Source of the DNA: Candidatus Levybacteria bacterium RIFCSPLOWO2_01_FULL_39_10
Lineage (GTDB): Bacteria > Patescibacteriota > Microgenomatia > Levybacterales > UBA12049
Assembly: GCA_001782515.1 (NCBI GenBank)
Contig: MFOV01000012.1
Span: 5,832-43,214, forward strand
Reading direction: 5' to 3'
DNA: 37,383 nucleotides
Made by a program: the position numbers and the translations under genes. Shown here piece by piece: positions 24,783 to 37,383 of the stretch (positions are counted from its first letter, which is position 1; the number at the start of each line of letters is the position of its first letter). The notes under the pieces are model-generated. The model was not told the origin of the DNA. It worked only from the letters and a program-made list of their open reading frames with translations, and made no database searches.

Positions 24783-25577
24783 TTACTTATTTATAAAAGT
24801 TGCCTGTAAGGAGCCACTGCTGTCTAGCAGTTCTAGGCCATCGAAAGTCATCTGGTAAACTGTAGAATTTTGAAGAGCATTTAAGTATTCTTGTTCTTGA
24901 AGCATAACATCCTCCTCGCATGCAATAAGAGTTACCGCGGGTGTTCCAATACTTATACTATTATTTTCGCCCAAAGCATAAGGCGCGCTATATGAGTTAC
25001 AACTTGAGGTTCCTGTTACTGTTCCGTTTTCAAAAAGTGCGGTAATTTTAGTTCCTATCACCAAAGATACAACTCCACCCCTGCCGTTATTGTAACCAAG
25101 TGCGTTCCAGTCTGTTCCTTCAAGGGCAGGCTCGTCTCTTAGTTTGTAAACTAATAAACCGTTCCCGTTTGAATCTTTTAAATAAAGATTGCTGCCGCTT
25201 ATTTCAAATTTTGTGACATTTTCCAAATGTCTTAAATAAATATTTTCAAGCGTCATGATATCTGGAAGACAGGCTTTTTCAGTAGTTACAAATGGGGAGA
25301 ACTCAATATCGTTTCCGCTGGTTGAATAAGTTCCGCTATATAGATTGCAAAACGCGGTGCCGGTTACTCTTCCGTTATCTTCAAAAATAATGTTTGCAGT
25401 TTGTGTTTCATCGGGAACCTGGTTGGTTTGTTTGCCTTTCGAGTACTCTGTCAAATTCCAATAACCGTAAATTTCCGAGGAATTATTATTAATTAAAGAG
25501 TTGTCCCGCGTAAATAAAAGAAAAAGAGCTGTCAAAATTAAAACAATTCCTATTATTGCAAGTATTGCGTTTTTCAT
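24783..25577 (-). CDS. Double META (HslJ-like) domain protein
   Basis: Two repeats of G..CN.Y...T..AC...E..YL. Confidence 0.85.
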   Translation of the reverse strand: MKNAILAIIGIVLILTALFLLFTRDNSLINNNSSEIYGYWNLTEYSKGKQTNQVPDETQTANIIFEDNGRVTGTAFCNLYSGTYSTSGNDIEFSPFVTTEKACLPDIMTLENIYLRHLENVTKFEISGSNLYLKDSNGNGLLVYKLRDEPALEGTDWNALGYNNGRGGVVSLVIGTKITALFENGTVTGTSSCNSYSAPYALGENNSISIGTPAVTLIACEEDVMLQEQEYLNALQNSTVYQMTFDGLELLDSSGSLQATFINK

Positions 25578-25584
25578 ATATTCG

Positions 25585-26157
25585 CTACAAACTATGCATC
25601 GTGCCTTCTACTATATGGTCGGCAGGAGATGGATCGCCATTATTCGGCTCGATTGTCAGCACATAAAAATCATAATTTGTCAGGTCCTGCCTTGATTTAT
25701 AAATGTTTGTATAGACTCCTCCAATTTTTCGGACAATTCCGGTGCTTAAAAACATGAAAGGGTCCTTTTGTACAATCCAGCCCTCATAAAAATCATCACT
25801 TGTGGGTGTTGGTAAATTTTCAAATGTTGCAAGAAGTGAGTACTGTGCTCCATCATAATTTGATTTTGCAATTCCCACTGCCTCGCCACCTGTATTTATG
25901 TCCCTTACTTCTCTTTTCGTAACATCTGAAAGTTCACCTTCATATTGATATGTAATTTCCTTCATAGCATCTAGATCATTTTCATCGGTTTCAATCATCA
26001 TCTCATCATCAGTTGGCTCACCGGTCATTGATTTCTCCGAAGTATTTTTGTTTATCATACCCAAATCAACTGGTAGGTTATCTGGCTTTAAAAAATAAAA
26101 ACCAATACCCCCGATTATTATTAAAACCAGAAATATAATTATTAATTTCTTAACCAT
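25585..26157 (-). CDS. Membrane-anchored hypothetical protein with RskA C-terminal-like domain
   Basis: FYEGWIV and VLTIEP..DPSPADHIVEG. Confidence 0.6.
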   Translation of the reverse strand: MVKKLIIIFLVLIIIGGIGFYFLKPDNLPVDLGMINKNTSEKSMTGEPTDDEMMIETDENDLDAMKEITYQYEGELSDVTKREVRDINTGGEAVGIAKSNYDGAQYSLLATFENLPTPTSDDFYEGWIVQKDPFMFLSTGIVRKIGGVYTNIYKSRQDLTNYDFYVLTIEPNNGDPSPADHIVEGTMHSL

Positions 26158-26166
26158 AATTAAGAT

Positions 26167-26301
26167 TTATTTTTTATTCAGATGTTTAAAATATTCAATT
26201 TGCATGAGGCGTTTCTTCGCTTCCTCGTAAGTCCGGTAAGTTCCCATATTTCGTCCTTTCTCAGAGAGAACTCGGAAGCCTTCTTTTACTTTTCTAATCA
26301 T
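26167..26301 (-). CDS. Small basic protein (44 aa, MIRKVKEGFRVLSEKGRNMGTYRTYEEAKKRLMQIEYFKHLNKK)
   Basis: Translated by hand; TGCTATAAT 6 nt before ATG; fills the gap in a co-directional run. Confidence 0.75.
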   Translation of the reverse strand: MIRKVKEGFRVLSEKGRNMGTYRTYEEAKKRLMQIEYFKHLNKK

Positions 26302-26325
26302 ATATAAATTATAGCAAAAGAGTTT

Positions 26326-26790
26326 TTAGATAGATAAAGCATCAAGTGCTTTTAGTGCATAATATTTGACATTCGGAACAATCTCATTATTTTCTTCTAT
26401 TTCTTTCTTTGTAAACCATCTACACTCCTCGTTTAACTCATCTTTCATACCCTGAGTTATTTGATCACTTGTTGCTTTAGCAAAATAAACAAACGTTATG
26501 TGTTCATGTGTTTTGTCAATTTTATGTCTGTTTAAAAAATATGGGGGTATTAACTCTATGGTTTCATCCTTTTCATAATTAGGTCTTAGCTTATCATCCA
26601 GTTCAATATCCAATCCAACCTCTTCTTTAACTTCACGAATCGCCGCCTCAACTGGGTCCTCGTGAAGCTCAATATGTCCACCAATACTCAACCACTTTTT
26701 ATATTTATCATGTCTTCTTAAAAGTACTTTATGTTTATGAACGATAAAAACTTCAACTGTAAAATCGATAAGTTTATGGATGTGTGGCAT
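26326..26790 (-). CDS. NUDIX hydrolase
   Basis: Nudix box GGHIELHEDPVEAAIREVKEEVGL. Confidence 0.92.
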   Translation of the reverse strand: MPHIHKLIDFTVEVFIVHKHKVLLRRHDKYKKWLSIGGHIELHEDPVEAAIREVKEEVGLDIELDDKLRPNYEKDETIELIPPYFLNRHKIDKTHEHITFVYFAKATSDQITQGMKDELNEECRWFTKKEIEENNEIVPNVKYYALKALDALSI

Positions 26791-26833
26791 GGAGAGATTA
26801 TAACAAATTGAACTTGTATTGTAGAATGAGTTT

Positions 26834-27127
26834 ATGGCGAGAAAGGACCTGCCTGCCGGCAGGCAGGAGTGGTCGAATGAGGTTACTAAACATAGTATTG
26901 CGCTGGATCTTGAAGAAGGGGTTTTTACATGGGATGATCCGAAAAAAATTGCCTCAAGTCTTAAGCGTTCGGCTGATGTTAGTACAAGAAGAAAAGCCTC
27001 ACCTTTTCAATCCGCAATGAGCATGCTTAATTTTTATATTAACCGCGCTGGTAAAAATCTAAACCCTAGGAAAAAGAAAATACTTGAGGAAGCAAAAATA
27101 GAGCTTCGAAAGATATTCACCGAATAA
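26834..27127 (+). CDS. DUF3175-family protein with an N-terminal palindrome-derived insertion
   Basis: WS.EVT.HS.ALDLE.GVFT, SAMSMLNFYINRAGKNL. Confidence 0.85.
   Translation: MARKDLPAGRQEWSNEVTKHSIALDLEEGVFTWDDPKKIASSLKRSADVSTRRKASPFQSAMSMLNFYINRAGKNLNPRKKKILEEAKIELRKIFTE
26848..26867. repeat. Perfect 20-bp palindrome CCTGCCTGCCGGCAGGCAGG inside the CDS
   Basis: Read directly; encodes LPAGRQ. Confidence 0.9.
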
Positions 27128-27165
27128 GGGCAATTATAGCACTTCGCTTTTGCTCAGCGTAAACA
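27128..27165 (-). repeat. Boundary motif GCTATAATTGCCC preceded by CTGAGCAAAAGCGAAG
   Basis: Minus strand CTGAGCAAAAGCGAAGTGCTATAATTGCCC closely matches CTGAGCAAAGTCGAAGGGCTATAATTGCCC in the 76-bp repeats. Confidence 0.8.
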
Positions 27166-27169
27166 GAAG

Positions 27170-27793
27170 TTATTTACTGAATATTGTTATTCCGCCGTTA
27201 GAGCCGGGGAAGTTGAAAGCTTTTTCAAAATCTTTTAGAGTAATTTTTCTTCCTTTGATTGGTGGTAGTCCAGGGTCGTGAAGAATTATATTTCTTCCGT
27301 CAAAATCATAAAGCAAAATGTAATGTAAAGAAAAGCCTGGCTTGTTGTTTAAAATTCTGGAATTTACTTCTACGCTAACCAAAAAGCCGTCTTTTAAGTT
27401 TTCTGTTATTTCATTAACAGATCCTTTTCTTATCTCGTGCTTTACGTTTTTGAGAAATTCCGGAATAAAAGGGATTACTGATTTGATATTGCTTTTGTCC
27501 AGATAATAATCCGCTGTGTCTTTGCCGACCACTTTTCTAAGGTAATCCGGGCCGTCTTTGTAAAGTTTTTTGTAATCGACGGGTTCTACGCTCGTGATTT
27601 TTAAACCTTTTTTTGCAAAGTATGTAAGTCCGGGGAATGTCCAAGTTCCTTTTCTGGAGACAGATTTCATTATTCTATCTATTTCGCGCCAATTTAAATC
27701 TTCACCAAAATAATATTTGCTAAGCATTCGAAAGACTGCGGGACAACAGTGCATGTTATCGGAAGAATTAGCTACAAACGGGATCTTTTTCAT
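27170..27793 (-). CDS. Peptidase C39-like (papain-fold) protein
   Basis: N-terminal HCCPA, HYILLYDFD, ILHDPG. Confidence 0.7.
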   Translation of the reverse strand: MKKIPFVANSSDNMHCCPAVFRMLSKYYFGEDLNWREIDRIMKSVSRKGTWTFPGLTYFAKKGLKITSVEPVDYKKLYKDGPDYLRKVVGKDTADYYLDKSNIKSVIPFIPEFLKNVKHEIRKGSVNEITENLKDGFLVSVEVNSRILNNKPGFSLHYILLYDFDGRNIILHDPGLPPIKGRKITLKDFEKAFNFPGSNGGITIFSK

Positions 27794-27807
27794 GGGGCAA
27801 TTATAGC
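27794..27807 (-). repeat. Boundary/promoter motif GCTATAATTGCCCC directly before ATG
   Basis: Plus strand GGGGCAATTATAGC. Confidence 0.9.
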
Positions 27808-27846
27808 AGGTTTGTTATATAAGCTATGTTATAATCTAAGTCATTA

Positions 27847-28374
27847 ATGAATATAAATTATATATCTTCCGTTGTTGAAATATTTACCCAGCTTACAACA
27901 GCGATTGCAATAATTCTCGGTGGCATTTGGGGATATTGGAATTTTGTGATCAGAAGGACTGGTATATGGAATCTTCAAATGAGTATTTTGCCCCAAGTCC
28001 ATAGTTATCATGGAAAAGACCGCTTACTAATTGTTGTTAATATTACGTTAAAAAATGTTGGTAATGTAAAGATTGTTCCTGGACCAAGCGGATGCAGATT
28101 AACAGTGATTAAATTACCAAAAAATATTAAAGAATATAACGTTTTAGATTGGAAAAAAGGACAGGTGCTGTTTAAAAATATTGACATATTAAGGAATTGT
28201 AAAGTAAATAATAGTTATGAAGGAGGATATGAGCTTGAACCAAATAATGAATATCATGAATTCGAAACATTTATTGTAAAAAAAGGTGATTTGTTAGCGA
28301 TAAGATGTAAATTTTATTGTGAAAACAATAAGGATGTTATTCACGAAAGTACTATATTTCAAGTAAATACCTGA
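27847..28374 (+). CDS. Hypothetical protein with N-terminal TM helix
   Basis: AIILGGIWGYWNF, ITLKNVG; TGTTATAAT upstream. Confidence 0.7.
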   Translation: MNINYISSVVEIFTQLTTAIAIILGGIWGYWNFVIRRTGIWNLQMSILPQVHSYHGKDRLLIVVNITLKNVGNVKIVPGPSGCRLTVIKLPKNIKEYNVLDWKKGQVLFKNIDILRNCKVNNSYEGGYELEPNNEYHEFETFIVKKGDLLAIRCKFYCENNKDVIHESTIFQVNT

Positions 28375-28392
28375 AAAATTACTCTTAATATT

Positions 28393-28530
28393 TTAAAAAG
28401 ATAATTGTTGTTTATAGAAATCAATTGAATTTGTTACAGCGCTATTCCAACCTGATGGCAGCAAATTATGGTCAGCTCCGGGATATTTAAAATAAGTAAC
28501 ATCTACATCATTTTCCTTTAAAGCTTCTCC
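28393..28530 (-). pseudogene. C-terminal fragment of an alpha/beta hydrolase (S9 peptidase-like)
   Basis: Translated by hand: GEALKENDVDVTYFKYPGADHNLLPSGWNSAVTNSIDFYKQQLSF*; carries the catalytic-His motif; 5' side replaced by repeats. Confidence 0.7.
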
Positions 28531-28665
28531 TTTCCCACTTTACTTTCCCACTTGGAATGTGGGAAGCAAGAAATGTGGGAAGCAAGAACCTCGGTTTCAC
28601 TCAGTGCAAGCGCGCAAGGCTACGAAGGATTCATCTTGAGGGTTTCATCCTGAAGGGCAAGGAAG
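28530..28665. repeat. Composite repeat cluster
   Basis: CTTTCCCACTT x2, AATGTGGGAAGCAAGA x2 (TTCCCAC and GTGGGAA are complementary), then a degenerate minus-strand copy of the 76-bp unit. Confidence 0.8.
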
Positions 28666-28679
28666 AAAGAGTATATTGT

Positions 28680-28988
28680 TTAGGATAAAATTCCTGAGAA
28701 GAATATAAGAAGAATAACAACTGTTATTGCGGCAAAAATTCCAAGAGTTTGAAGGAATATATTAACGGCTTCTTTTTTCTTCCCGTCAAAATAAAGCTGT
28801 AGCGGCTGGAAAAGAAAAATATATCCCATAACTGCTGCAGAGAGTGAAAAAAGAGAGAGTGCAGCAATTGGCGCAAGTACAGAATTATCATTAGTTCCTG
28901 AAAACTGCGTACCATAATACATTACACTTGCCACAACTACTATATATAGTACTCCGGCCCCAGCATTGATGATTGGATTCTTAGTCAC
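28680..28988 (-). CDS. Small three-TM hypothetical protein
   Basis: 102-aa hydrophobic ORF, LSAAVMGYIF..P..LYFDGKKKEA. Confidence 0.75.
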   Translation of the reverse strand: MTKNPIINAGAGVLYIVVVASVMYYGTQFSGTNDNSVLAPIAALSLFSLSAAVMGYIFLFQPLQLYFDGKKKEAVNIFLQTLGIFAAITVVILLIFFSGILS

Positions 28989-29084
28989 TTATTTATTATC
29001 AGAATTATAGCACAAACGGGCAATTCCAAAATTTTAAATCTTGCATGAATTTTTAAATATCTTTACTATAAATGTATAGACTAA

Positions 29085-29762
29085 ATGGCGGTTGCGCAGG
29101 AAACACTAAACGCTCCACACCACACCGATTCAGAAGCGGAATCTGCTTTTATCCCCCTAAAAATGACACAACGATCAGTAGACATTGATATCGATTTTTC
29201 AAAAGTAAATCCTGATAATATAATTGGTAAAATATACGAAGATGAATGTTTCAAGAGAGTAATTGAAGAGCTTGGGCCAAGCGAGGTTGCGTATGGTGCA
29301 CATTTTTTAAACAGAGCATTTAACTCTCACCTTAAAGCAAGAGGGGTTTCAATACCAGATGCATTAGTTGGTGAAGTTGATTACTCAACGCAGGTGTTAG
29401 ATCAATCTGGTGTTCCAGTTGATAGGTCCGTAATAAGAGTGAAACGAATTATTGAAGCGCGAACTGGAGAAATCAATGGTATATATAAACTAAAAAGATT
29501 TGGAAACTTAACAGCGGAAATTAGAAGAAATCCGGAATTTTTTACAATGGCAATTAGAAAGTTACTTGCTGGTAGGGGTGGGGTTTTAAATCTTGCTTTT
29601 TTATTTGCTCCGCCCGATGGGGAACTAGAAGTTGATTTTTATTCCCCACATCAACATACAGAAAGAGAAGTAGCTGATGCTAAAAGACAGCTTGGAGAAC
29701 ACCCTTTTAGAAAAATAGGATATAAAACTGTTCCTCTTCCGATTTTCACCCCTGCAGTATAG
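29085..29762 (+). CDS. Hypothetical protein, possibly a degenerate PD-(D/E)xK fold
   Basis: 225-aa ORF; IPDALV...IIEARTG. Confidence 0.6.
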   Translation: MAVAQETLNAPHHTDSEAESAFIPLKMTQRSVDIDIDFSKVNPDNIIGKIYEDECFKRVIEELGPSEVAYGAHFLNRAFNSHLKARGVSIPDALVGEVDYSTQVLDQSGVPVDRSVIRVKRIIEARTGEINGIYKLKRFGNLTAEIRRNPEFFTMAIRKLLAGRGGVLNLAFLFAPPDGELEVDFYSPHQHTEREVADAKRQLGEHPFRKIGYKTVPLPIFTPAV

Positions 29763-29893
29763 AGAATTAAATGGATATTTTATTGCTCGAACGATGGTAT
29801 GTTTATAAAACAACTGACTGGACAAATTACCATAAATATCCAGAATTTACTCTAAAACAAACCCAGCATTGTTAGCAATAAATTAACTACCCA

Positions 29894-30529
29894 TTATAAC
29901 TGTTTTACAAATCTGACTGTATAGTTCCAAAAGTTTCCCAACACTTTATCAAGAATAAAACCTGCCTCCTCTCCTATCTTGATTGTGGTTGATTTAAGCG
30001 GATAATCTGGGTCAGGCAAAAACTCGGTTACTGCTAGAACACCCCCTGGCTTTAACACCCTTCCTGCCTCCTTCAAAGCTTTCTGTTTGTCTGGTGTCTC
30101 TTGAAGGACTGTCACCATATACACTAAGTCAATAGAATTATCTTCAAAGGGTAGTTTGTATGCGCTTCCAAGAATCAACTTGATGTTTTTTATATCCTGA
30201 TTTTCAGGTTTTGTAAGTTTGACTTTTAGCTGCCTTAACATTGCAGGTTGAATATCAAGCGCATACACTTTTCCTGTCTTCCCAACGACTCTTGCAACAG
30301 ATGTCACAAATGCTCCGCTTCCACATCCAACCTCCAATACACGCATACCCTGCTTTATTCCACTACGCTCTATTAACTTATCGGGTGGTTGCATCTCCCT
30401 TCTTATATCACTATCCAGGAATCGTCCAATAAACGCAGGTGCAGGAAAGTGATACCTTTTTCTAAACAGTCTTATAACTACTTGCCATACCAGAAGAACT
30501 CCTAAGATTGTTAATACAATCGTCGTCAT
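29894..30529 (-). CDS. Class I SAM-dependent methyltransferase
   Basis: VLEVGCGSG, ALDIQ, LPFEDNSIDLV, RVLKPGG. Confidence 0.92.
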   Translation of the reverse strand: MTTIVLTILGVLLVWQVVIRLFRKRYHFPAPAFIGRFLDSDIRREMQPPDKLIERSGIKQGMRVLEVGCGSGAFVTSVARVVGKTGKVYALDIQPAMLRQLKVKLTKPENQDIKNIKLILGSAYKLPFEDNSIDLVYMVTVLQETPDKQKALKEAGRVLKPGGVLAVTEFLPDPDYPLKSTTIKIGEEAGFILDKVLGNFWNYTVRFVKQL

Positions 30530-30688
30530 TCCTTAAATTATAGCAACATTTAATGCCTTAAAAACTGCCAACTCGGTTAGATTATTGACAACTCAGCTCC
30601 CCCTATCGGACTTATTCATCAACAGGGAGATTGAGTTTGATGTTAACTTGGAGGATTTTAAGAATTTATATTCAAATCTGAATATTAT

Positions 30689-31174
30689 CTAATTAACTAG
30701 GATATATTTTTCATCCTCGCTGGGTGATTCCCAGTATTTCAAATATTTATCAAACATTTCTCCACTTATTTCAAAGGAATCTATAGGAGGATTTTTACTT
30801 CGTGAAACAACCCTTTCTCTCATTTTCTCTACAGAGCATTCAACATAATATAAAATTGGCTTTGCTCCTGCATTTAATATTTTCTTCTTTATATCGTCTC
30901 TTTGTGATTTAACCCAGAAACCTTCATCTATTATCACATCTTTCCCAGATTCCAAAATTTTGAAAGCAATATTTGTAGCCAATTTCGTTATTTTTCCGTC
31001 ATATACTGCAAAATTCTTATCTGAAGTAATTTTATTTCCATAAATTTTTATAATCCATTCGTCTTTAGTTATGCGAATTGCTCCCGTTTCCTTTTCTAGT
31101 TTTCTAGCAAAAGTAGTTTTTCCCGAACCGATAAATCCGCAGATAACATAAGCAATAGGTTGTTTCTTATTCAT
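30689..31174 (-). CDS. P-loop kinase (AAA_33-like)
   Basis: CGFIGSGKTTFA, DVIIDEGFW. Confidence 0.85.
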   Translation of the reverse strand: MNKKQPIAYVICGFIGSGKTTFARKLEKETGAIRITKDEWIIKIYGNKITSDKNFAVYDGKITKLATNIAFKILESGKDVIIDEGFWVKSQRDDIKKKILNAGAKPILYYVECSVEKMRERVVSRSKNPPIDSFEISGEMFDKYLKYWESPSEDEKYILVN

Positions 31175-31233
31175 TAAGACATTATAACAAAGTGGAATCT
31201 ATTTATATTATGATGGAGCTCTAAAATTACTTG

Positions 31234-31305
31234 CTCCGCAGCTAGGACTCGAACCTAGAACCTTATCCTTAACAGGGATCTGCTCTACCATTGAGCTACT
31301 GCGGA
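31234..31305 (-). tRNA. tRNA-Asn (GTT), CCA not encoded
   Basis: TCCGCAG acceptor stem, GCTC/GAGC D-arm, loop CTGTTAA, CTAGG-TTCGAGT-CCTAG T-arm. Confidence 0.96.
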
Positions 31306-31362
31306 ATGTTTGATAATTATATAAAATTAGCCTCAAGATGTAAACCTGCTATAATTGATCCA

Positions 31363-31521
31363 ATGAAAATAAATGCAGAGTGGCATAAGAAAAATAAAAT
31401 GCCAAAAAATCCAACCGAGGAGCAAAGAATAAAATGGCATATAGCGCATGCCAAAAATTGCGCTTGCTGGCCTATACCCAAAAAACTCCAAGAGATAATT
31501 GACAAAAAATATCCGTCCTAA
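31363..31521 (+). CDS. Small His/Cys-motif protein (52 aa)
   Basis: MKINAEWHKKNKMPKNPTEEQRIKWHIAHAKNCACWPIP; TGCTATAAT 7 nt before ATG. Confidence 0.7.
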   Translation: MKINAEWHKKNKMPKNPTEEQRIKWHIAHAKNCACWPIPKKLQEIIDKKYPS

Positions 31522-31606
31522 TATAATTTGCTAAATTATGAAAACCCGTCACGTTAGAGAAGTGTGATTGTTTAAGTTTTTATAGAGACAAACAGAAAAC
31601 AGTATT

Positions 31607-32032
31607 ATGAAAAAATCCCAAAACAACAAAAAATCCTCTAACGTGATGAATCCCGTAGTTCACTTTGAGATGCCGGCAGTTAATAAAAAAAGAGTTGCGA
31701 AGTTTTACGAAACTGCCTTTGGCTGGGAGACGCAGCAGTTAGGAGCAGAGATGGGTCATTATCTTCTGGCAACAACAACACCTCTTGACAAGAATAGAAT
31801 GCATCTTAATAAAGGCGCCATAAACGGAGGTTTTTTCCAAAAACCAAAAGAAGGCAAGGTGCCTCATCTGGTAATCTCAGTTGATAATCTTAAAAAACAC
31901 ATGGAAATTGTTAAAAAAGCAGGTGGAAAAGTTCTGGGAAAGCCAATGGATATTTCAGGAATTGGAGAATTTGTAATGTTTAAAGACACAGAAGGAAACC
32001 AAGTCGGAATGCTTGAGCCCTCTCAAATGTAG
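31607..32032 (+). CDS. VOC/glyoxalase family protein
   Basis: NPVVHFEMP, FYETAFGW, INGG, FKDTEGNQVG. Confidence 0.9.
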   Translation: MKKSQNNKKSSNVMNPVVHFEMPAVNKKRVAKFYETAFGWETQQLGAEMGHYLLATTTPLDKNRMHLNKGAINGGFFQKPKEGKVPHLVISVDNLKKHMEIVKKAGGKVLGKPMDISGIGEFVMFKDTEGNQVGMLEPSQM

Positions 32033-32059
32033 ATTTATCTCATTTGCTATAATTGCCCC

Positions 32060-32548
32060 ATGAAGGTTAACGAAAATATTATTTGGGACTTACTTAGACT
32101 TTCGCTTTCATTTATTTTTCTCTGGGTATTTTTTGATAAATTATTTGGACTTGGATTTGCAACCGGAGCAAGTAAATCATGGCTTGCAGGGGTCTCTCCT
32201 ACAACCGGATTTTTAGCAAATGCTCCCGATGGACCACTTGCTCCGCTTTTTAACAGTCTCTCAGGAAATATTGTGATAGATATTTTATTTATGGGAGGAC
32301 TTTTTTTAGTTGGATCTGCACTACTTCTTGGAATCGGGATGAAGATTGCTGGTTACTCAGGATCTTTAATGATGTTTTTAATTTATCTTTCTCTTTTTCC
32401 TCCGGAGAATAATCTCTTGATTGACGAACACATTGTTTATATTATTATTCTGATTGGCTTGGTCATAAGAGGTGAAAAACAAAAATTTGGGTTCGGCAAA
32501 AAATGGTCAGAAGTTAAATTAGTTAAAAAGTATTCAATCCTTCAATAG
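32060..32548 (+). CDS. DoxX-family membrane protein
   Basis: LRLSLSFIFLWVFFDKLFGLG, SPTTGFL, LIDEHIVY. Confidence 0.8.
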   Translation: MKVNENIIWDLLRLSLSFIFLWVFFDKLFGLGFATGASKSWLAGVSPTTGFLANAPDGPLAPLFNSLSGNIVIDILFMGGLFLVGSALLLGIGMKIAGYSGSLMMFLIYLSLFPPENNLLIDEHIVYIIILIGLVIRGEKQKFGFGKKWSEVKLVKKYSILQ

Positions 32549-32577
32549 ATAAATTCCCCTTTTGCTATAATTGCCCC

Positions 32578-33039
32578 ATGACTTCCTCTGAATTTTTCAA
32601 AATAATTGAATATATTACCCAAAACTGCAGGGATTTAAAAAATAAATATATAAGCGAAGATTTAAAAATTGATTACGTTTGCATATTTTCGAAAAGCCAA
32701 AAGGAATTTGATGAACTTTTAAAATTTGCGTCAAGCATAGGAGAATTGGCAGAACAAACAAAAACAGGGCCTGTTTTTAAATTAAATAATTCTCCAGATA
32801 CAATTATTGGCAAACCAAAAATGCTAAAAATAAGAATTCCCGATAAAACAAGACTGGAAAGAGGAGACGTGGATTTTAATACAGACTATGAAAATTTCAA
32901 AAAAAAGTATCTTGATAACAAAAGATTTACTTTAATAAAAAGGGACAACTTTGAAATGCTTGAACTGCGAGATAATTCCTTTGATGTTCTGGTTTACTTC
33001 TCAAGCATTCCTCTTAGCGAACAGTTAGGAGTAAATTAA
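32578..33039 (+). CDS. Hypothetical protein
   Basis: 153-aa ORF starting directly after the motif. Confidence 0.75.
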   Translation: MTSSEFFKIIEYITQNCRDLKNKYISEDLKIDYVCIFSKSQKEFDELLKFASSIGELAEQTKTGPVFKLNNSPDTIIGKPKMLKIRIPDKTRLERGDVDFNTDYENFKKKYLDNKRFTLIKRDNFEMLELRDNSFDVLVYFSSIPLSEQLGVN

Positions 33040-33063
33040 AAGCTAAGCTGCTATAATTGCCCC

Positions 33064-33390
33064 ATGATTATAATCCTCAAAAAAAGAGCTACGAAAGATG
33101 ATATTAAAAAAATGTCAGAAGATTTTGACGGATATATTAAGCTTGTTGTCGACATTGAAAAAGAAATATTGGCCGGAGGCGGAGAGAGGCATTTTGAAGC
33201 AGAACAAAAATTAATTAATGATGGTTCACACCAAACAAGTCTTTGGGGCGGCGGATTAGATTGGGATACTCGCGAGATAGATTATAATTCAATTTTAAAT
33301 CTTCGGCCGGGGGTAAATCCAAGCCGTGATATTCTCTCCGAAATTATAAGAAAAAAGTTTGATAAAATAGTTGAAGATATTCTTCTATGA
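33064..33390 (+). CDS. DUF5674-like protein
   Basis: IKLVVDIEKEILAGGGERH..E..L...GS.Q..LWGG, SILNLRP. Confidence 0.75.
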   Translation: MIIILKKRATKDDIKKMSEDFDGYIKLVVDIEKEILAGGGERHFEAEQKLINDGSHQTSLWGGGLDWDTREIDYNSILNLRPGVNPSRDILSEIIRKKFDKIVEDILL

Positions 33391-33698
33391 CAAGTACAAA
33401 ATTAAAAATTCTAGACATAGCGATGAACCTTAATAGAGTTGGTAACTTTGCCGCAGATGGGTATGATATAAAACAAAAAAGAATAAAAATATTTCTTAAT
33501 CAAACCTCAGAATACATAGACTCTCTCTCTATCAAAGATTTACCAGACTCATTTAAAAGAACATACTTAAATTTTCTAAATCAATATAAATATCTTAAAA
33601 AGGAAGGATTATCAGGACCTAAAAATGAGCTTGAATGGGCTGAAAAAATGATGACATGGGGAAATATTTTGACTCACCGTGCAAACCTCATAAAATAA
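33387..33698 (+). CDS. Hypothetical helical protein coupled (ATGA overlap) to the DUF5674 gene
   Basis: 103-aa ORF. Confidence 0.7.
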   Translation: MTSTKLKILDIAMNLNRVGNFAADGYDIKQKRIKIFLNQTSEYIDSLSIKDLPDSFKRTYLNFLNQYKYLKKEGLSGPKNELEWAEKMMTWGNILTHRANLIK

Positions 33699-33701
33699 CT
33701 T

Positions 33702-33777
33702 CCTTGCCCTATCGTAGCCTTAGGGCGAAGTGGGGTGCTTGCCCTGAGCAAAGTCGAAGGGCTATAATTGCCCCAGT
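33702..33777 (+). repeat. 76-bp direct repeat, copy 1
   Basis: CCTTGCCCTATCGTAGCCTTAGGGCGAAGTGGGGTGCTTGCCCTGAGCAAAGTCGAAGGGCTATAATTGCCCCAGT. Confidence 0.95.
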
Positions 33778-33992
33778 TATTTTAGCCTGAGGAATTCTTC
33801 TTCACTAGACTCCGCTTGTTTGATTATACTTCTTACCAAACCTTTTTTCAGTTCTCTGGCATGAATGGGAATAGGAATAATCCTCTTTAACTTGGGATTA
33901 TACATAATAAGATGGCTGCCGGTTTGTCTTTTTTGAATGTACCCCAGTTTTTGAAGAATTTTAACTATCTCTCTTGCTTTAAAACTTGCCAT
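33777..33992 (-). CDS. hicA: HicA-family toxin
   Basis: LQKLGY..RQTGSHLIM, IPIHARELKKG..RSIIKQA. Confidence 0.92.
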   Translation of the reverse strand: MASFKAREIVKILQKLGYIQKRQTGSHLIMYNPKLKRIIPIPIHARELKKGLVRSIIKQAESSEEEFLRLK

Positions 33993-34262
33993 TTATAGAG
34001 ATACTGCTGGATTTTGTACGGAAATTTGCGTGATGACAACATTTGGCCCTTCTTGTGGAATTTCTTGTTTTTCTTCTTTAAGAACCTCCAAATACCCTTC
34101 CATGGCATCTTTTATCATAGACACCGCTTCCTCAAAAGTTTCCCCCTGGCTAACGCAGCCAGGAAGTGCCGGAACACTTACCACATATCCGCCTTCTTCA
34201 GCCGGTTCAAAGATAGCAGTATATTTTAAGATTTTTTTTGAAAGAGATTTTACTTTTACCAT
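33993..34262 (-). CDS. hicB: HicB-family antitoxin (short, no DNA-binding domain)
   Basis: EEGGYVVSVPALPGCVSQGETFEEA. Confidence 0.92.
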   Translation of the reverse strand: MVKVKSLSKKILKYTAIFEPAEEGGYVVSVPALPGCVSQGETFEEAVSMIKDAMEGYLEVLKEEKQEIPQEGPNVVITQISVQNPAVSL

Positions 34263-34291
34263 GAATTAATTATAGCATACTCAAACTCTTC

Positions 34292-34367
34292 CCTTGCCCT
34301 ATCGTAGCCTTAGGGCGAAGTGGGGTGCTTGCCCTGAGCAAAGTCGAAGGGCTATAATTGCCCCAGT
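34292..34367 (+). repeat. 76-bp direct repeat, copy 2
   Basis: Identical to 33702-33777. Confidence 0.95.
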
Positions 34368-34403
34368 GCGTGACAAAATGTATGCTAATATGGTAATATA
34401 TTT

Positions 34404-34688
34404 ATGAATACATCCTTTGAATGGGATGAGAGTAAAAATACCGAGAATTTAAGAAAGCATGGAGTAGGTTTTGAGACTGCCCAATTCGCATTTATTGATT
34501 TAAGACGCGTAATTGCTCGGGATCTAACTCACAGTAAGAGAGAAAAGAGATATTTTTGTTTCGGAAAAGTTAAAGGAGGTGTACTGACTGTTCGCTTTAC
34601 CTATCGGAGCAATAAAATTCGCATAATTGGCGCTGGATATTGGAGAAAGGGCAAAAGCATATATGAAAAACAAAATAAAATACAGTAA
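34404..34688 (+). CDS. brnT: BrnT-family toxin
   Basis: FEWDESKNTENLRKHGVGFE, EKRY, LTVRFTYR..IRII. Confidence 0.9.
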   Translation: MNTSFEWDESKNTENLRKHGVGFETAQFAFIDLRRVIARDLTHSKREKRYFCFGKVKGGVLTVRFTYRSNKIRIIGAGYWRKGKSIYEKQNKIQ

Positions 34689-34893
34689 TGAACCAATCGA
34701 GGCTCGTGTAGTGAGTGATTTCTTACCTAAGCCTGAGGATTTGGTTTTAAAAGAAAAAAAGATAAGGGTAACCTTAACTCTTACCGAGAAAAGTTTGGAC
34801 TTTTTTAAAATAGCTGGTAAAAAACATGGGGCTCCTTATCAGGCAATGATAAGACGCCTTCTTGATTTTTACGTTGCTAATCAAAAAGCCTAA
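34663..34893 (+). CDS. BrnA/CopG-like antitoxin
   Basis: DFLPKPEDL, RVTLTL..LDFFK, PYQAMIRRLLD; overlaps brnT. Confidence 0.85.
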   Translation: MKNKIKYSNEPIEARVVSDFLPKPEDLVLKEKKIRVTLTLTEKSLDFFKIAGKKHGAPYQAMIRRLLDFYVANQKA

Positions 34894-35009
34894 ATAAGTT
34901 TTGGAAGAATTTCCTCTTCTGCTATAATTGTCCCCATAGCCGATTTCCAAGAAGTCACTATAGGATATTGTGTTTTGAGGGGAGTAGTGCTATTATCGCT
35001 CAGCAAAAA

Positions 35010-37383
35010 ATGCGAAAGGGGTTTTGGAGAAAGTTCTCTGCATTCCTTGCCCTAATTTCGATACTTGCCCAATCGTTAGTCCTTTTATTGGCTTCGGCAC
35101 CAAGAGTATATGCACAAGAAGAGGTAGAACAAGTTGCACTTGAAGAATCTGTAACAGAAACTCCTATTCCTACTACCTCTGATGAAATAACCGCATCTCC
35201 CTCACCAGAAGATCAACCTCAAATAACTCCCGAAGAGGCAATCTTTGAGATAGACATAACCCTCACACCACCAGAAAACGTTACGCCTTCAAATGCTCAG
35301 ACACAAAATGAGTTGGAGCAACTAGAAAATCAGGAAAACAATAATAGTCCAAATGAAAAACCACAAGATGAAGAGCCACAAGAGTATAATGAAGAACTCC
35401 ACGTTATAGTTATCAATAATGTTTCTGCTGAATCTTTAGATTTAGAAACAACTGTAAAAGATTCTTCGGCAACACTTACTACCGATAAGGCCGACTATTC
35501 TCCAACAGACACGGTTATTATTAGCGGGAGCGATTTTAAGCCGGAGCAAACATATAAGCTAATAATTACATCAGAAAATGAGCCTCCTGCCCACTTTGAA
35601 ACAGAAATTAAATCTGATGAAAACGGATCTTTCATATACGCTTATCAGCTAGACGGGACGTACAGACCAAACTATAAAGTTGAGGCAAAAGACGAAGATG
35701 GAAATATTATCGCAACTATAACATTTACAGACGACATCCAAGCCCCTGTTCCCTTTTCAGACTCCTTTGGGACTGTAAATTCGTCTTCGGTAACTAATTG
35801 GGATGAACAAGATCCTGCGGAAATAACAAGTGGTTCAGGTGAGGATTCTTCAAGACCGGGGTCTCCTACTACAAAATTTGCAAAAATTGGACAATCAAGC
35901 GGCGGAACAGATGGATGGATTAGGCGAACGATCAACGCAACAGGATTTCAATCTCTTCAACTTAAATATTACTGGAGAGGAGATAGTGACGCAGAAAGTA
36001 ATGACTTAGGAATTGTAGAATATTGTTTGGGAGCGACTTGCACTTCTTTTAACCAGCTCGTGACTCATGCTTTGAACAATACTTCCTGGAGCGGCCAGCA
36101 AACCATAAATTTGCCCTCATCGCTTAATAATTCTGTCTTTAGAATAAGATTTAGAAATAGTTCCAGCAATACTGATGAATATTTTAGAGTAGATGATGTT
36201 GAAGTAGCGGGCTCTGGGATAGTTCCGCCGGATACCATTCCTCCAACTGACCCAGCTGATGTCCATAGTACTGACCACACAATCAATGTACCATCAAGTG
36301 ACAATACTATTGCTATTGCTTGGACCTTAGCCGGTTCTGCTCCCGGGGCTACTGATTCAGAATCCGGGATTGACGGATATTCATATTCATTTAGTGGCGG
36401 GGCTGCTGATTTACCAGATACAGTAAAAGACTCGGAAGAATCATCAATAGGGACAACGAGTAGCTCTCTTTCAGACGGCAATTGGTGGTTTCATTTAAGA
36501 ACCAGAGATAATGCAGGCAACTGGACATCAACGGTGCATATCGGCCCATTTATAGTAGATACCGGTGCTCCGGTTTTATCAGAGGCAACAGCTGTCCAAA
36601 CCCCAACAAATGATACGACCCCAGCTTATGTATTCAATTCTGATGAAGAAGGGACGGTTTCATATGGAGGCAGTTGTTCCAGCCCAGATTCGTCTGCAGT
36701 TTCTGGCAACAATACTATTACTTTTAACTCTCTTTTGGATGGAACCTATTCTGATTGTACAATTATAGTTACGGATTCTGCGGAGAATAGTAGTACGCCT
36801 TTGGGTGTATCTCCATTTACAGTTGATACGCTGGCTCCTACATCTTCATTTACTTCTCCAGAAAACAACAGTTTCTGGAACAGCTCAATAGAAATCTCCG
36901 GAAGCTCAATTGACCCATCAGGTAATTTTGTAGATTATGTTACGCTATATTACTCCCTCTCAGGAGAAAATGACTGGAATGAGATTACCCAAGTTACTAA
37001 TAATGCAGATACCCCTTTTAATTGGAGCTACAGCTGGGAACCCGAAAATGAGGTGACTTATGACATAAAGGCTGAGGCAACAGATGTTGCTGGAAACACG
37101 GAGACAAGCCCCATAGTCACAAATATAACTTATGATATTACATCACCCACAGATCCCGATGTTTTCTCAAGTAGCCATGCAGTTGGTACTTGGTCAAATG
37201 ATCCAACCGTTGATATTGAGTGGGGTGGGGCTGCGGACTTTTTGTCTGGAGTAGCCGGTTATTCATTTCATTTTGATTCCTCGCCAAGCACGCTTCCTGA
37301 TGAAGTATCAGAAGGGTTAGTAACATCAACAACAAGTGAGGGGCAAGGCGATGGAGACTCACACTACTTTCATTTAAGAACAC
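35010..37383 (+). CDS. Large secreted acidic Ser/Thr-rich surface protein with Ig-like/FN3-like repeats; 5' part (at least 791 codons), absent from the ORF track
   Basis: Translated by hand: signal-like MRKGFWRKFSAFLALISILAQ..VYA, E/P/T linker, TDKADYSP, repeated DT.PP and D.AGN motifs; frame open to the window end. Confidence 0.88.
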   Translation, partial: MRKGFWRKFSAFLALISILAQSLVLLLASAPRVYAQEEVEQVALEESVTETPIPTTSDEITASPSPEDQPQITPEEAIFEIDITLTPPENVTPSNAQTQNELEQLENQENNNSPNEKPQDEEPQEYNEELHVIVINNVSAESLDLETTVKDSSATLTTDKADYSPTDTVIISGSDFKPEQTYKLIITSENEPPAHFETEIKSDENGSFIYAYQLDGTYRPNYKVEAKDEDGNIIATITFTDDIQAPVPFSDSFGTVNSSSVTNWDEQDPAEITSGSGEDSSRPGSPTTKFAKIGQSSGGTDGWIRRTINATGFQSLQLKYYWRGDSDAESNDLGIVEYCLGATCTSFNQLVTHALNNTSWSGQQTINLPSSLNNSVFRIRFRNSSSNTDEYFRVDDVEVAGSGIVPPDTIPPTDPADVHSTDHTINVPSSDNTIAIAWTLAGSAPGATDSESGIDGYSYSFSGGAADLPDTVKDSEESSIGTTSSSLSDGNWWFHLRTRDNAGNWTSTVHIGPFIVDTGAPVLSEATAVQTPTNDTTPAYVFNSDEEGTVSYGGSCSSPDSSAVSGNNTITFNSLLDGTYSDCTIIVTDSAENSSTPLGVSPFTVDTLAPTSSFTSPENNSFWNSSIEISGSSIDPSGNFVDYVTLYYSLSGENDWNEITQVTNNADTPFNWSYSWEPENEVTYDIKAEATDVAGNTETSPIVTNITYDITSPTDPDVFSSSHAVGTWSNDPTVDIEWGGAADFLSGVAGYSFHFDSSPSTLPDEVSEGLVTSTTSEGQGDGDSHYFHLRT

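Follow-up and report, generated by a model that had tools for sequence, protein, structure and literature searches.

Why should a small peptidase-like gene be enclosed by two copies of one and the same promoter-like motif, and is such a unit an independent insertion or the inverted arm of a larger array? The question is raised by a 37,383-nt stretch of DNA, here called the window, from Candidatus Levybacteria bacterium RIFCSPLOWO2_01_FULL_39_10. The window corresponds to positions 5832-43214 of contig C12 (MFOV01000012.1) in a draft genome (G000) of 921,647 bp, 31 contigs and 37.6% G + C. Positions without a contig prefix follow the window numbering; C12, C17 and C1 are contigs of G000, G numbers denote related genomes and L numbers denote sequence loci or metagenome contigs. 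On the minus strand of the window, a stand-alone gene for a C39-like cysteine peptidase lies in a 667-bp unit that begins and ends at the motif. This motif-bounded single-gene cassette, which is duplicated and inverted in the genome, is real. We consider it fairly probable that it is a single-gene expression cassette of a promoter-delimited array, shuffled by recombination at the shared promoter.

The sequence GCTATAATTGCCC was found on the minus strand at 27128-27140 and again at 27795-27807, 667 bp from start to start. A first-pass annotation had described the unit as a C39-like gene with the same motif at both ends, and this description held in its details. The upstream copy, TGCTATAATTGCCCC, is followed directly by ATG and opens the C39-like open reading frame (ORF; Table 1). 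The downstream copy begins 29 nt past the C39 stop codon and is followed immediately by the stop codon, in reverse complement, of a convergent DUF3175 gene, so that it faces the 3' end of that gene, with no ORF behind it. The prefix CTGAGCAAA..CGAAG of the downstream copy, said to be shared with two 76-nt perfect repeats elsewhere in the window, matches the 3' 30 nt of these repeats at 27 of 30 positions. The proposed orientation pattern was also correct: the two copies left of a tRNA-Asn gene are on the minus strand and the seven copies to its right on the plus strand. Allowing up to 2 mismatches, these nine copies in the window compare with 0.85 expected, and none of 100 shuffles reached nine.

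Folding of the two junctions of the C39 cassette was no better than that of shuffled sequences (z 0.12 for the 3' tail, and -0.05 for the other junction), and no terminator-like site was present between the cassettes; a terminator or structured-RNA reading of the cassette ends was ruled out on these two grounds. The 76-nt junction variant gives two hairpins, with a z of only -1.6. The CTGAGC..CGAAG module, CCTGAGCRAAGTCGAAGG, is dispersed, with 17 matches at up to 3 mismatches on 10 contigs of the genome. In the window it occurs at 33751-33768 and 34341-34358; it often forms the loop between short variable inverted repeats. The module is contained in the long junction forms, and a more diverged form is present in the tail of the C39 cassette (27146-27161).

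Read as a promoter, the motif consists of TG-C-TATAAT, an extended -10 element of the type TGnTATAAT, followed by the six bases TGCCCC and then by ATG (TGCTATAAT-TGCCCC-ATG). The usual distance from the -10 element to the transcription start is 7 nt; with a gap of 6 nt the RNA would therefore begin on the A of the ATG, and the C39-like mRNA would be leaderless. Genome-wide, TATAAT precedes the ATG of ORFs of at least 60 amino acids (aa) 45 times at a spacing of 6 nt (N6), 19 times at N7 and 23 times at N8, compared with 1-7 times at most other spacings from 0 to 30; for TGnTATAAT there were 26 cases at N6 and none at N0-5. This strong over-representation of the N6 spacing points to leaderless mRNAs. 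Conservation of the N-terminal residues in 31 homologues, with M1 invariant, shows that the start codon of the C39-like gene is correctly assigned. The architecture of a leaderless promoter was found, with the -10 element within 6-8 nt of the start codon and no space for a Shine-Dalgarno site; promoter activity and leaderless translation at the motif are predictions from this geometry. A search for RNA runs covering 26800-35000 listed none. Leaderless genes with a -10 element next to the ORF are known from Deinococcus-Thermus and from Actinobacteria such as Mycobacterium. They share with the present case the hexamer 6-8 nt before the start codon, the missing Shine-Dalgarno site and the genome-wide use. 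Here, however, one exact 18-mer serves about ten adjacent unrelated genes and is also present without an ORF behind it.

All nine genomic copies of this exact 18-mer, TGCTATAATTGCCCCATG, are located at C12:33622-47460, within about 14 kb around tRNA-Asn. At up to 2 mismatches, C12 contains 15 copies (C12:32958-47457), of which 9 stand directly before an ORF of at least 30 aa and 6 are orphans. Thirteen of 61 related genomes contained at least one match at up to one mismatch, and reversed-pattern controls gave none. At least three copies at this threshold were found in genomes of the same genus only: G000 (10 copies; 9 exact on C12 and one with one mismatch on C17), G002 (6), G012 (4) and G013 (3). 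G002 has two arrays with 11 copies each at up to 2 mismatches, and 15 of its 21 copies with an intact TATAAT are orphans. Orphan copies precede opposite-strand genes, or toxin-antitoxin operons with promoters of their own. As orphans make up about half of all copies in the C12 and G002 arrays, the orphan beside DUF3175 is a regular feature of the array. Sixteen viral contigs matched the motif, each with a single copy and none with an array, which was taken as the chance level without a computed expectation. Full-text searches of the published literature found no description of such arrays in the Candidate Phyla Radiation (CPR)/Patescibacteria.

The genome contains the C39-like gene twice. Copy B is located just past the window at C12:44575-45198 on the plus strand, 11 kb from the copy in the window (copy A) and inverted relative to it; it has 207 codons and is about 90% identical. 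Homology of the two copies extends from CTGCTATAAT upstream to the motif downstream, and at copy B this downstream motif is predicted to drive the next gene, which encodes a 2'-5' RNA ligase-superfamily protein. At its 3' end, copy A alone is longer by a tail of about 22 nt (TTTACGCTGAGCAAAAGCGAAG). The alignment of this tail with the 76-nt repeats and with the sequence 3' of the G013 homologue shows that it is old and was lost in copy B. The ratio of nonsynonymous to synonymous divergence (dN/dS) between the copies is 0.15, and both are under purifying selection. Codons 1-63 have a synonymous divergence of 0.085, the remaining codons one of 0.45; the low value at the 5' end fits a later exchange beside the shared motif.

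Comparison with relatives located the ends of the homologous blocks. Contig L029 is 99.8% identical to 27129-28384; after GCTATAATTGCC, different DNA replaces DUF3175, so that the break lies inside the motif. About 600 nt beyond the orphan motif, L029 carries a motif-headed cassette which in G000 is located at C17:27772-28435 (95.9% identity; locus L068 6773-7436). This C17 cassette holds an RNA 2',3'-cyclic phosphodiesterase gene between direct repeats of about 27 nt that include the motif, the downstream copy being an orphan. Its repeats have the motif variant ending in CCCTGTG, and a gene for an Xer-like tyrosine recombinase is located about 950 bp away. Contig L031 is 100% identical to C12:44141-45750 and continues with other cassettes directly after the motif. 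A 726-bp segment (C12:45734-46459), which encodes a toxin-antitoxin-like pair of 93 and 102 aa, shares 98.9% identity with G002 from one motif to the next, compared with 67-84% for the syntenic flanks. For the hicAB unit the match to G002 (86.6%) starts at the motif, and for a DoxX-like cassette (32045-32547) the match to G011 (82%) extends from the motif to 17 nt short of the next one. Of the 13 block ends that were not truncated, 11 are no more than 24 nt away from a motif copy, with a probability of 3e-13 for random positions and 3e-7 (binomial) for random intergenic positions. The exceptions are window position 28384, common to L029 and L030, and one end at 73 nt from a motif.

Both origins suggested in the first-pass annotation found support in these data. 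The inverted copy B, homologous from motif to motif, and the break inside the motif in L029 agree with an independent motif-bounded insertion. L029 and L030 also contain, past 28384, another two motif copies, in minus orientation like copy A, where G000 has only a decayed junction; copy A is therefore a member of a minus-oriented arm. The motif variants themselves differ between contigs. L030 differs from G000 at 10 positions over 2313 nt, four of them immediately next to the motif core (CCCCATG to CCCTGTG; upstream, AC to CT), and the C17 cassette carries opposite motif variants in G000 and L029, a reciprocal swap. Motif variants have therefore been exchanged between cassettes and the crossover points are not fixed, which favours homology-driven recombination or gene conversion.

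The C39-like protein matches Peptidase_C39 (PF03412; 27.5 bits, cut-off 22) and C39_2 (PF13529; 24.9 bits, cut-off 24), in both cases just above the cut-off. Its AlphaFold model has a predicted local distance difference test (pLDDT) score of 95.9. Foldseek returned peptidases of the papain fold and the C39 type, namely PeiR, the peptidase domains of PCAT1 and ComA, the phytochelatin-synthase-like Alr0975 and 3erv, with E values of 1e-5 to 1e-3 and a TM-score of about 0.5. C16, H157 and D173 are invariant in the 31 homologue sequences, and by analogy they are predicted to be catalytic. A search of lengths from 113 to 363 aa yielded 70 homologue clusters, all stand-alone and 128-242 aa long; those named by their source are called "hypothetical protein". 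The bacteriocin-processing type of C39 peptidase, for comparison, is fused to an ABC exporter and acts on a substrate with a double-glycine leader. The nearest named matches were from Gottesmanbacteria and Roizmanbacteria, and NCBIfam had no match for the protein. PADLOC assigned neither the C39-like protein nor most of the cassette proteins to a defence family; it matched a methyltransferase to mad2 and, weakly, a kinase-like protein to VakA and the 102-aa CopG-like antitoxin to REase_II.

When the contigs of related genomes were searched with this single protein, the only match was the homologue in G013, which is the closest outside homologue (65% aa identity). Its flanks are formed by another pair of 30-nt promoters, a sequence present just twice in the G013 genome. 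A homologue from another family in G041 (42% aa identity) has the motif with one mismatch upstream, and distant C39 homologues in G001, G026 and G041 have TGnTATAAT 6 nt before the start. As to whether homologues elsewhere are motif-flanked, only 3 of 29 complete metagenome loci were, and these three are near-identical and represent the same cassettes, whereas the other 26 share no 12-mer between their flanks. Syntenic homologues without flanking motifs, which would have spoken against an insertion, were not found. Judged from these flanks, the motif belongs to the array and not to the C39 gene family.

How could a promoter delimit a movable unit? The 16-nt core CTGCTATAATTGCCCC would form the junction between neighbouring cassettes and supply the homology for their duplication, exchange and reordering. 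The most likely route is recombination driven by homology between motif copies, or gene conversion between them, in the way proposed for the promoter-early stem-loop (PeSL) cassettes of T4-type phages. A gene landing behind the motif would gain a complete promoter. Copy A would then be an older, diverged (90%) duplicate of a plus-arm cassette, inverted in the minus-oriented arm beside DUF3175, and the downstream motif would be the junction copy at the 3' end of the cassette, orphaned only because the next gene is convergent. If active, the orphan would cause antisense transcription across DUF3175. The recombination mechanism and any antisense role are what we infer from the arrangement described above. 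More tentatively, and with somewhat less than an even chance in our judgement, the 16-nt leaderless promoter core may double as the crossover site of an integrase-free chromosomal cassette exchange in this genus of ultra-small, Microgenomates-type CPR bacteria, by which cassettes, including toxin-antitoxin pairs, would move between species; a gene brought in behind the core would be transcribed at once from its own start codon.

Several points weigh against recombination at the motif. The shared core is only about 16 nt long, which is short for RecA-type recombination, and the breakpoint at 28384 is 577 nt from the nearest motif in G000. The 13 block ends are not fully independent, and the intergenic spacers are short in this region; since these spacers are tiny and mostly consist of the motif, genes gained or lost one by one would in any case be likely to leave breaks close to a motif. 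With 26 of 29 complete homologue loci lacking such a motif, the C39-like family is represented in most relatives by an ordinary gene of the chromosome. Contigs of four runs (X1, X2, X3 and X5) gave 20 joints; among the 15 that were listed, none marked a deletion, circle or inversion of the C39 cassette, and contigs hide rare forms.

An integron-like capture, in which a dedicated recombinase would cut and join at a motif serving as attachment site with promoter and the orphan would be the terminal site of the last cassette, appears unlikely. The cassettes are indeed short and co-oriented, with many toxin-antitoxin pairs (hicAB, brnTA, PIN, ParE/Phd), their boundaries run sharply from motif to motif, their ends carry orphan copies, and a tRNA gene is located within the region. 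However, C12 contains no tyrosine recombinase; Phage_integrase (PF00589) matched only C17:25949-26476 and C1:26607-27086, and the C17 protein is Xer-like, with 262 bits for the XerC model and 122 for the integron-integrase model, which has a cut-off of 265. The sole serine recombinase on C12 (495-938) is about 32 kb away, and none of the 63 scanned ORFs of the G000 and G002 arrays is a recombinase. Moreover, the junctions are as short as about 27 nt without an inverted repeat, the crossover positions vary across the motif, and the 3' end of the tRNA is not copied at the junctions. Integrons are defined by the integrase IntI, imperfect palindromic attC sites and a common promoter Pc, and CALINs are attC clusters without the integrase. 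Like these, the array consists of short, mostly co-oriented and unrelated accessory genes, many of them toxin-antitoxin genes, with a repeated junction and a content that varies among close relatives; unlike these, it has no IntI nearby, no attC-like imperfect palindrome, and a promoter for every cassette instead of a common Pc. Stop-to-start spacers are about 27 nt at three junctions, without significant structure, and attC was not seen there, although no attC-specific model was used. The array is not an integron.

It seems similarly improbable that no special mobility is involved, the motif being no more than the best leaderless promoter, which came to stand before accessory genes by independent selection or by local duplication, and the C39 pair an ordinary inverted segmental duplication that included the promoter of a neighbour. 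The genome-wide use of leaderless extended -10 promoters is in line with this, as are the TGnTATAAT elements of the distant homologues in G001, G026 and G041 and the different promoter pair in G013. On the other hand, the exact 18-mer is restricted to one region, whereas the remaining N6 promoters of the genome have varied discriminators, unlike the array motif; half of the copies have no adjacent ORF to drive; and cassettes that are almost identical are found in other contexts and in other species, with homology that ends at the motif. An assembly artefact is very improbable; in that case, strain variants would have been wrongly fused in this metagenome-assembled genome, to give either the inverted copy B or the junction of DUF3175 with the motif. 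In its favour, the draft consists of 31 contigs, and contigs built from short reads end at the motif and at the nearly identical 5' stretch of the C39 gene (those of runs X1, X2 and X3 begin at 27780). Yet separate metagenome contigs carry copy A with DUF3175 (L030, 99.6% identical to 26072-28384 with the same junctions) and copy B with its neighbours (L031), and a single Logan contig of run X3 covers 25077-27248 with zero differences; one of the two, L030 or the run X3 contig, may stem from the sample behind the window. In addition, copies A and B differ by 9% with a dN/dS of 0.15 and are therefore not strain-level noise.

For recombination at a shared promoter, the closest described system is that of the PeSLs. 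PeSL cassettes of T4-type phages are reportedly also the subject of Comeau et al. 2014. In the T4-type phages treated by Arbiol et al. (2010, PMC2839356), accessory genes lie between copies of a strong early promoter with a stem-loop, and recombination between the repeats was proposed to excise, insert and shuffle these genes. Both systems have a strong sigma-70-type promoter repeated before many small accessory genes in a hypervariable or hyperplastic region (here 15 copies at C12:32958-47457, with only the -10 element kept at short junctions). In both, gains, losses and replacements between relatives end at the repeats; a PeSL unit between two repeats can be lost or moved by recombination, and the moved gene brings or receives a promoter; exchange from repeat to repeat reportedly also forms mini-circles. 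The present array differs in its location on a bacterial chromosome between housekeeping genes instead of in a phage, and in keeping only the extended -10 element, about 16 nt compared with about 100 bp in PeSLs. The C39 cassette also lacks a stem-loop terminator, and its start codon is at the predicted transcription start and not behind a Shine-Dalgarno site.

The features of the locus are listed in Table 1.

Table 1. Coordinates (window numbering) of the C39 cassette, its parts and the surrounding features.
Feature	Position	Strand	Remarks
Stand-alone C39-like (papain-fold) cysteine peptidase gene, copy A, 207 aa	27170..27793	-	Pfam C39, C39_2; AlphaFold; Foldseek
Upstream motif TGCTATAATTGCCCC + ATG	27791..27808	-	Extended -10, start codon 6 nt after -10, predicted leaderless start; one of nine exact 18-mers of the genome
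Downstream orphan motif TGCTATAATTGCCC	27128..27141	-	Points into 3' end of DUF3175; retained with the cassette in L029 despite different neighbouring DNA
3' tail of cassette, CTTCTG TTTACG CTGAGCAAAAGCGAAG	27142..27169	-	-35-like hexamer and copy of the dispersed CTGAGC..CGAAG module
DUF3175 gene, convergent, conserved edge of variable region	26834..27127	+	Pfam E 1e-41
175-aa accessory gene, travels with cassette (block 27129-28384)	27847..28374	+	Block common to L029 and L030; both diverge at 28384
Decayed junction-like element without -10 motif	28530..28670	-	Resembles 76-nt repeat and G002 junction units; CCCACAT/GTGGGAAG repeats
tRNA-Asn, between minus and plus arms	31233..31305	-	ARAGORN and Rfam
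Plus arm in window, seven motif copies heading cassettes	31348..34933	+	52-aa ORF; DoxX-like, 162 aa; 153 aa; DUF5674 + 103 aa; hicAB between 76-nt repeats; brnTA; large surface protein

The flanks of the array are chromosomal, with NUDIX, DUF3175, VKOR-like and ClC genes (Pfam) and one unscanned ORF. The DNA 3' of DUF3175 is different in all three genomes compared; in G002 and G013, unrelated DNA follows directly after the stop codon, without the motif. The 5' coding part of DUF3175 contains a perfect 20-nt palindrome, CCTGCCTGCCGGCAGGCAGG (26848-26867), and several contig joints in assembled runs start around it, at 26846-26867. The joints in the contigs of runs X1, X2, X3 and X5 come from short contigs with sides of about 20-30 nt and are not trustworthy. 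For the accessory gene at 27847, no homologue was found in 15 other genomes of the genus. Within the decayed element, 31 nt (28541-28571) match four places in the two G002 arrays at 96.8%; in those arrays the piece is part of a unit of about 92 nt between two motif copies, with a possible 34-codon ORF or small RNA.

In 26000-37383, Rfam detected the tRNA and otherwise just one snoRNA match below threshold. None of the 9-12-mers taken from the 3' part of tRNA-Asn reappeared at a junction; the few matches were inside genes or were AT-rich 9-mers. An origin of the junction repeats from the tRNA 3' end was therefore ruled out. Beside the 5' end of the tRNA gene, the motif variant TGCTATAATTGATCCA (31348-31366), followed by ATG with a 7-nt spacing, heads the 52-codon ORF, whose product is rich in Cys and His. 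The 76-nt direct repeats (33702-33777 and 34292-34367) are 100% identical, each ends in the motif, and they surround hicA and hicB on the minus strand; this pair appears to be a cassette that entered through exchange inside the longer form of the junction. The surface-type protein gene has more than 1200 codons (34921-37383 and beyond, L001 1-1423) and stands behind the motif variant TGCTATAATTGTCCC, with no start codon next to it; just past the window end, this gene contains a stretch of masked or unknown bases. The plus arm continues past the window to C12:47460 and includes copy B. Elsewhere, GIY-YIG gave 16 matches in the 0.92-Mb genome, mostly to short open frames of 63-137 aa, and in G002 two GIY-YIG genes surround tRNA-Asn within the same variable region (L025 3875-4698).

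If promoter repeats are exchange points, genome-reduced uncultured bacteria would have a simple route to gain, lose and at once express accessory genes without integrases or transposases. The locus would then correspond, in a bacterium and with leaderless genes, to PeSL shuffling in phages and would be functionally analogous to integrons; it would offer a compact natural example in which expression signal and recombination site are the same sequence. It would also account for the breaking of assemblies in such regions. For annotation, such repeats call for caution, as they would be junctions as well as promoters and antisense RNA may run from their orphan copies into the genes alongside. About ten identical promoters offer a direct test of leaderless transcription in CPR bacteria.

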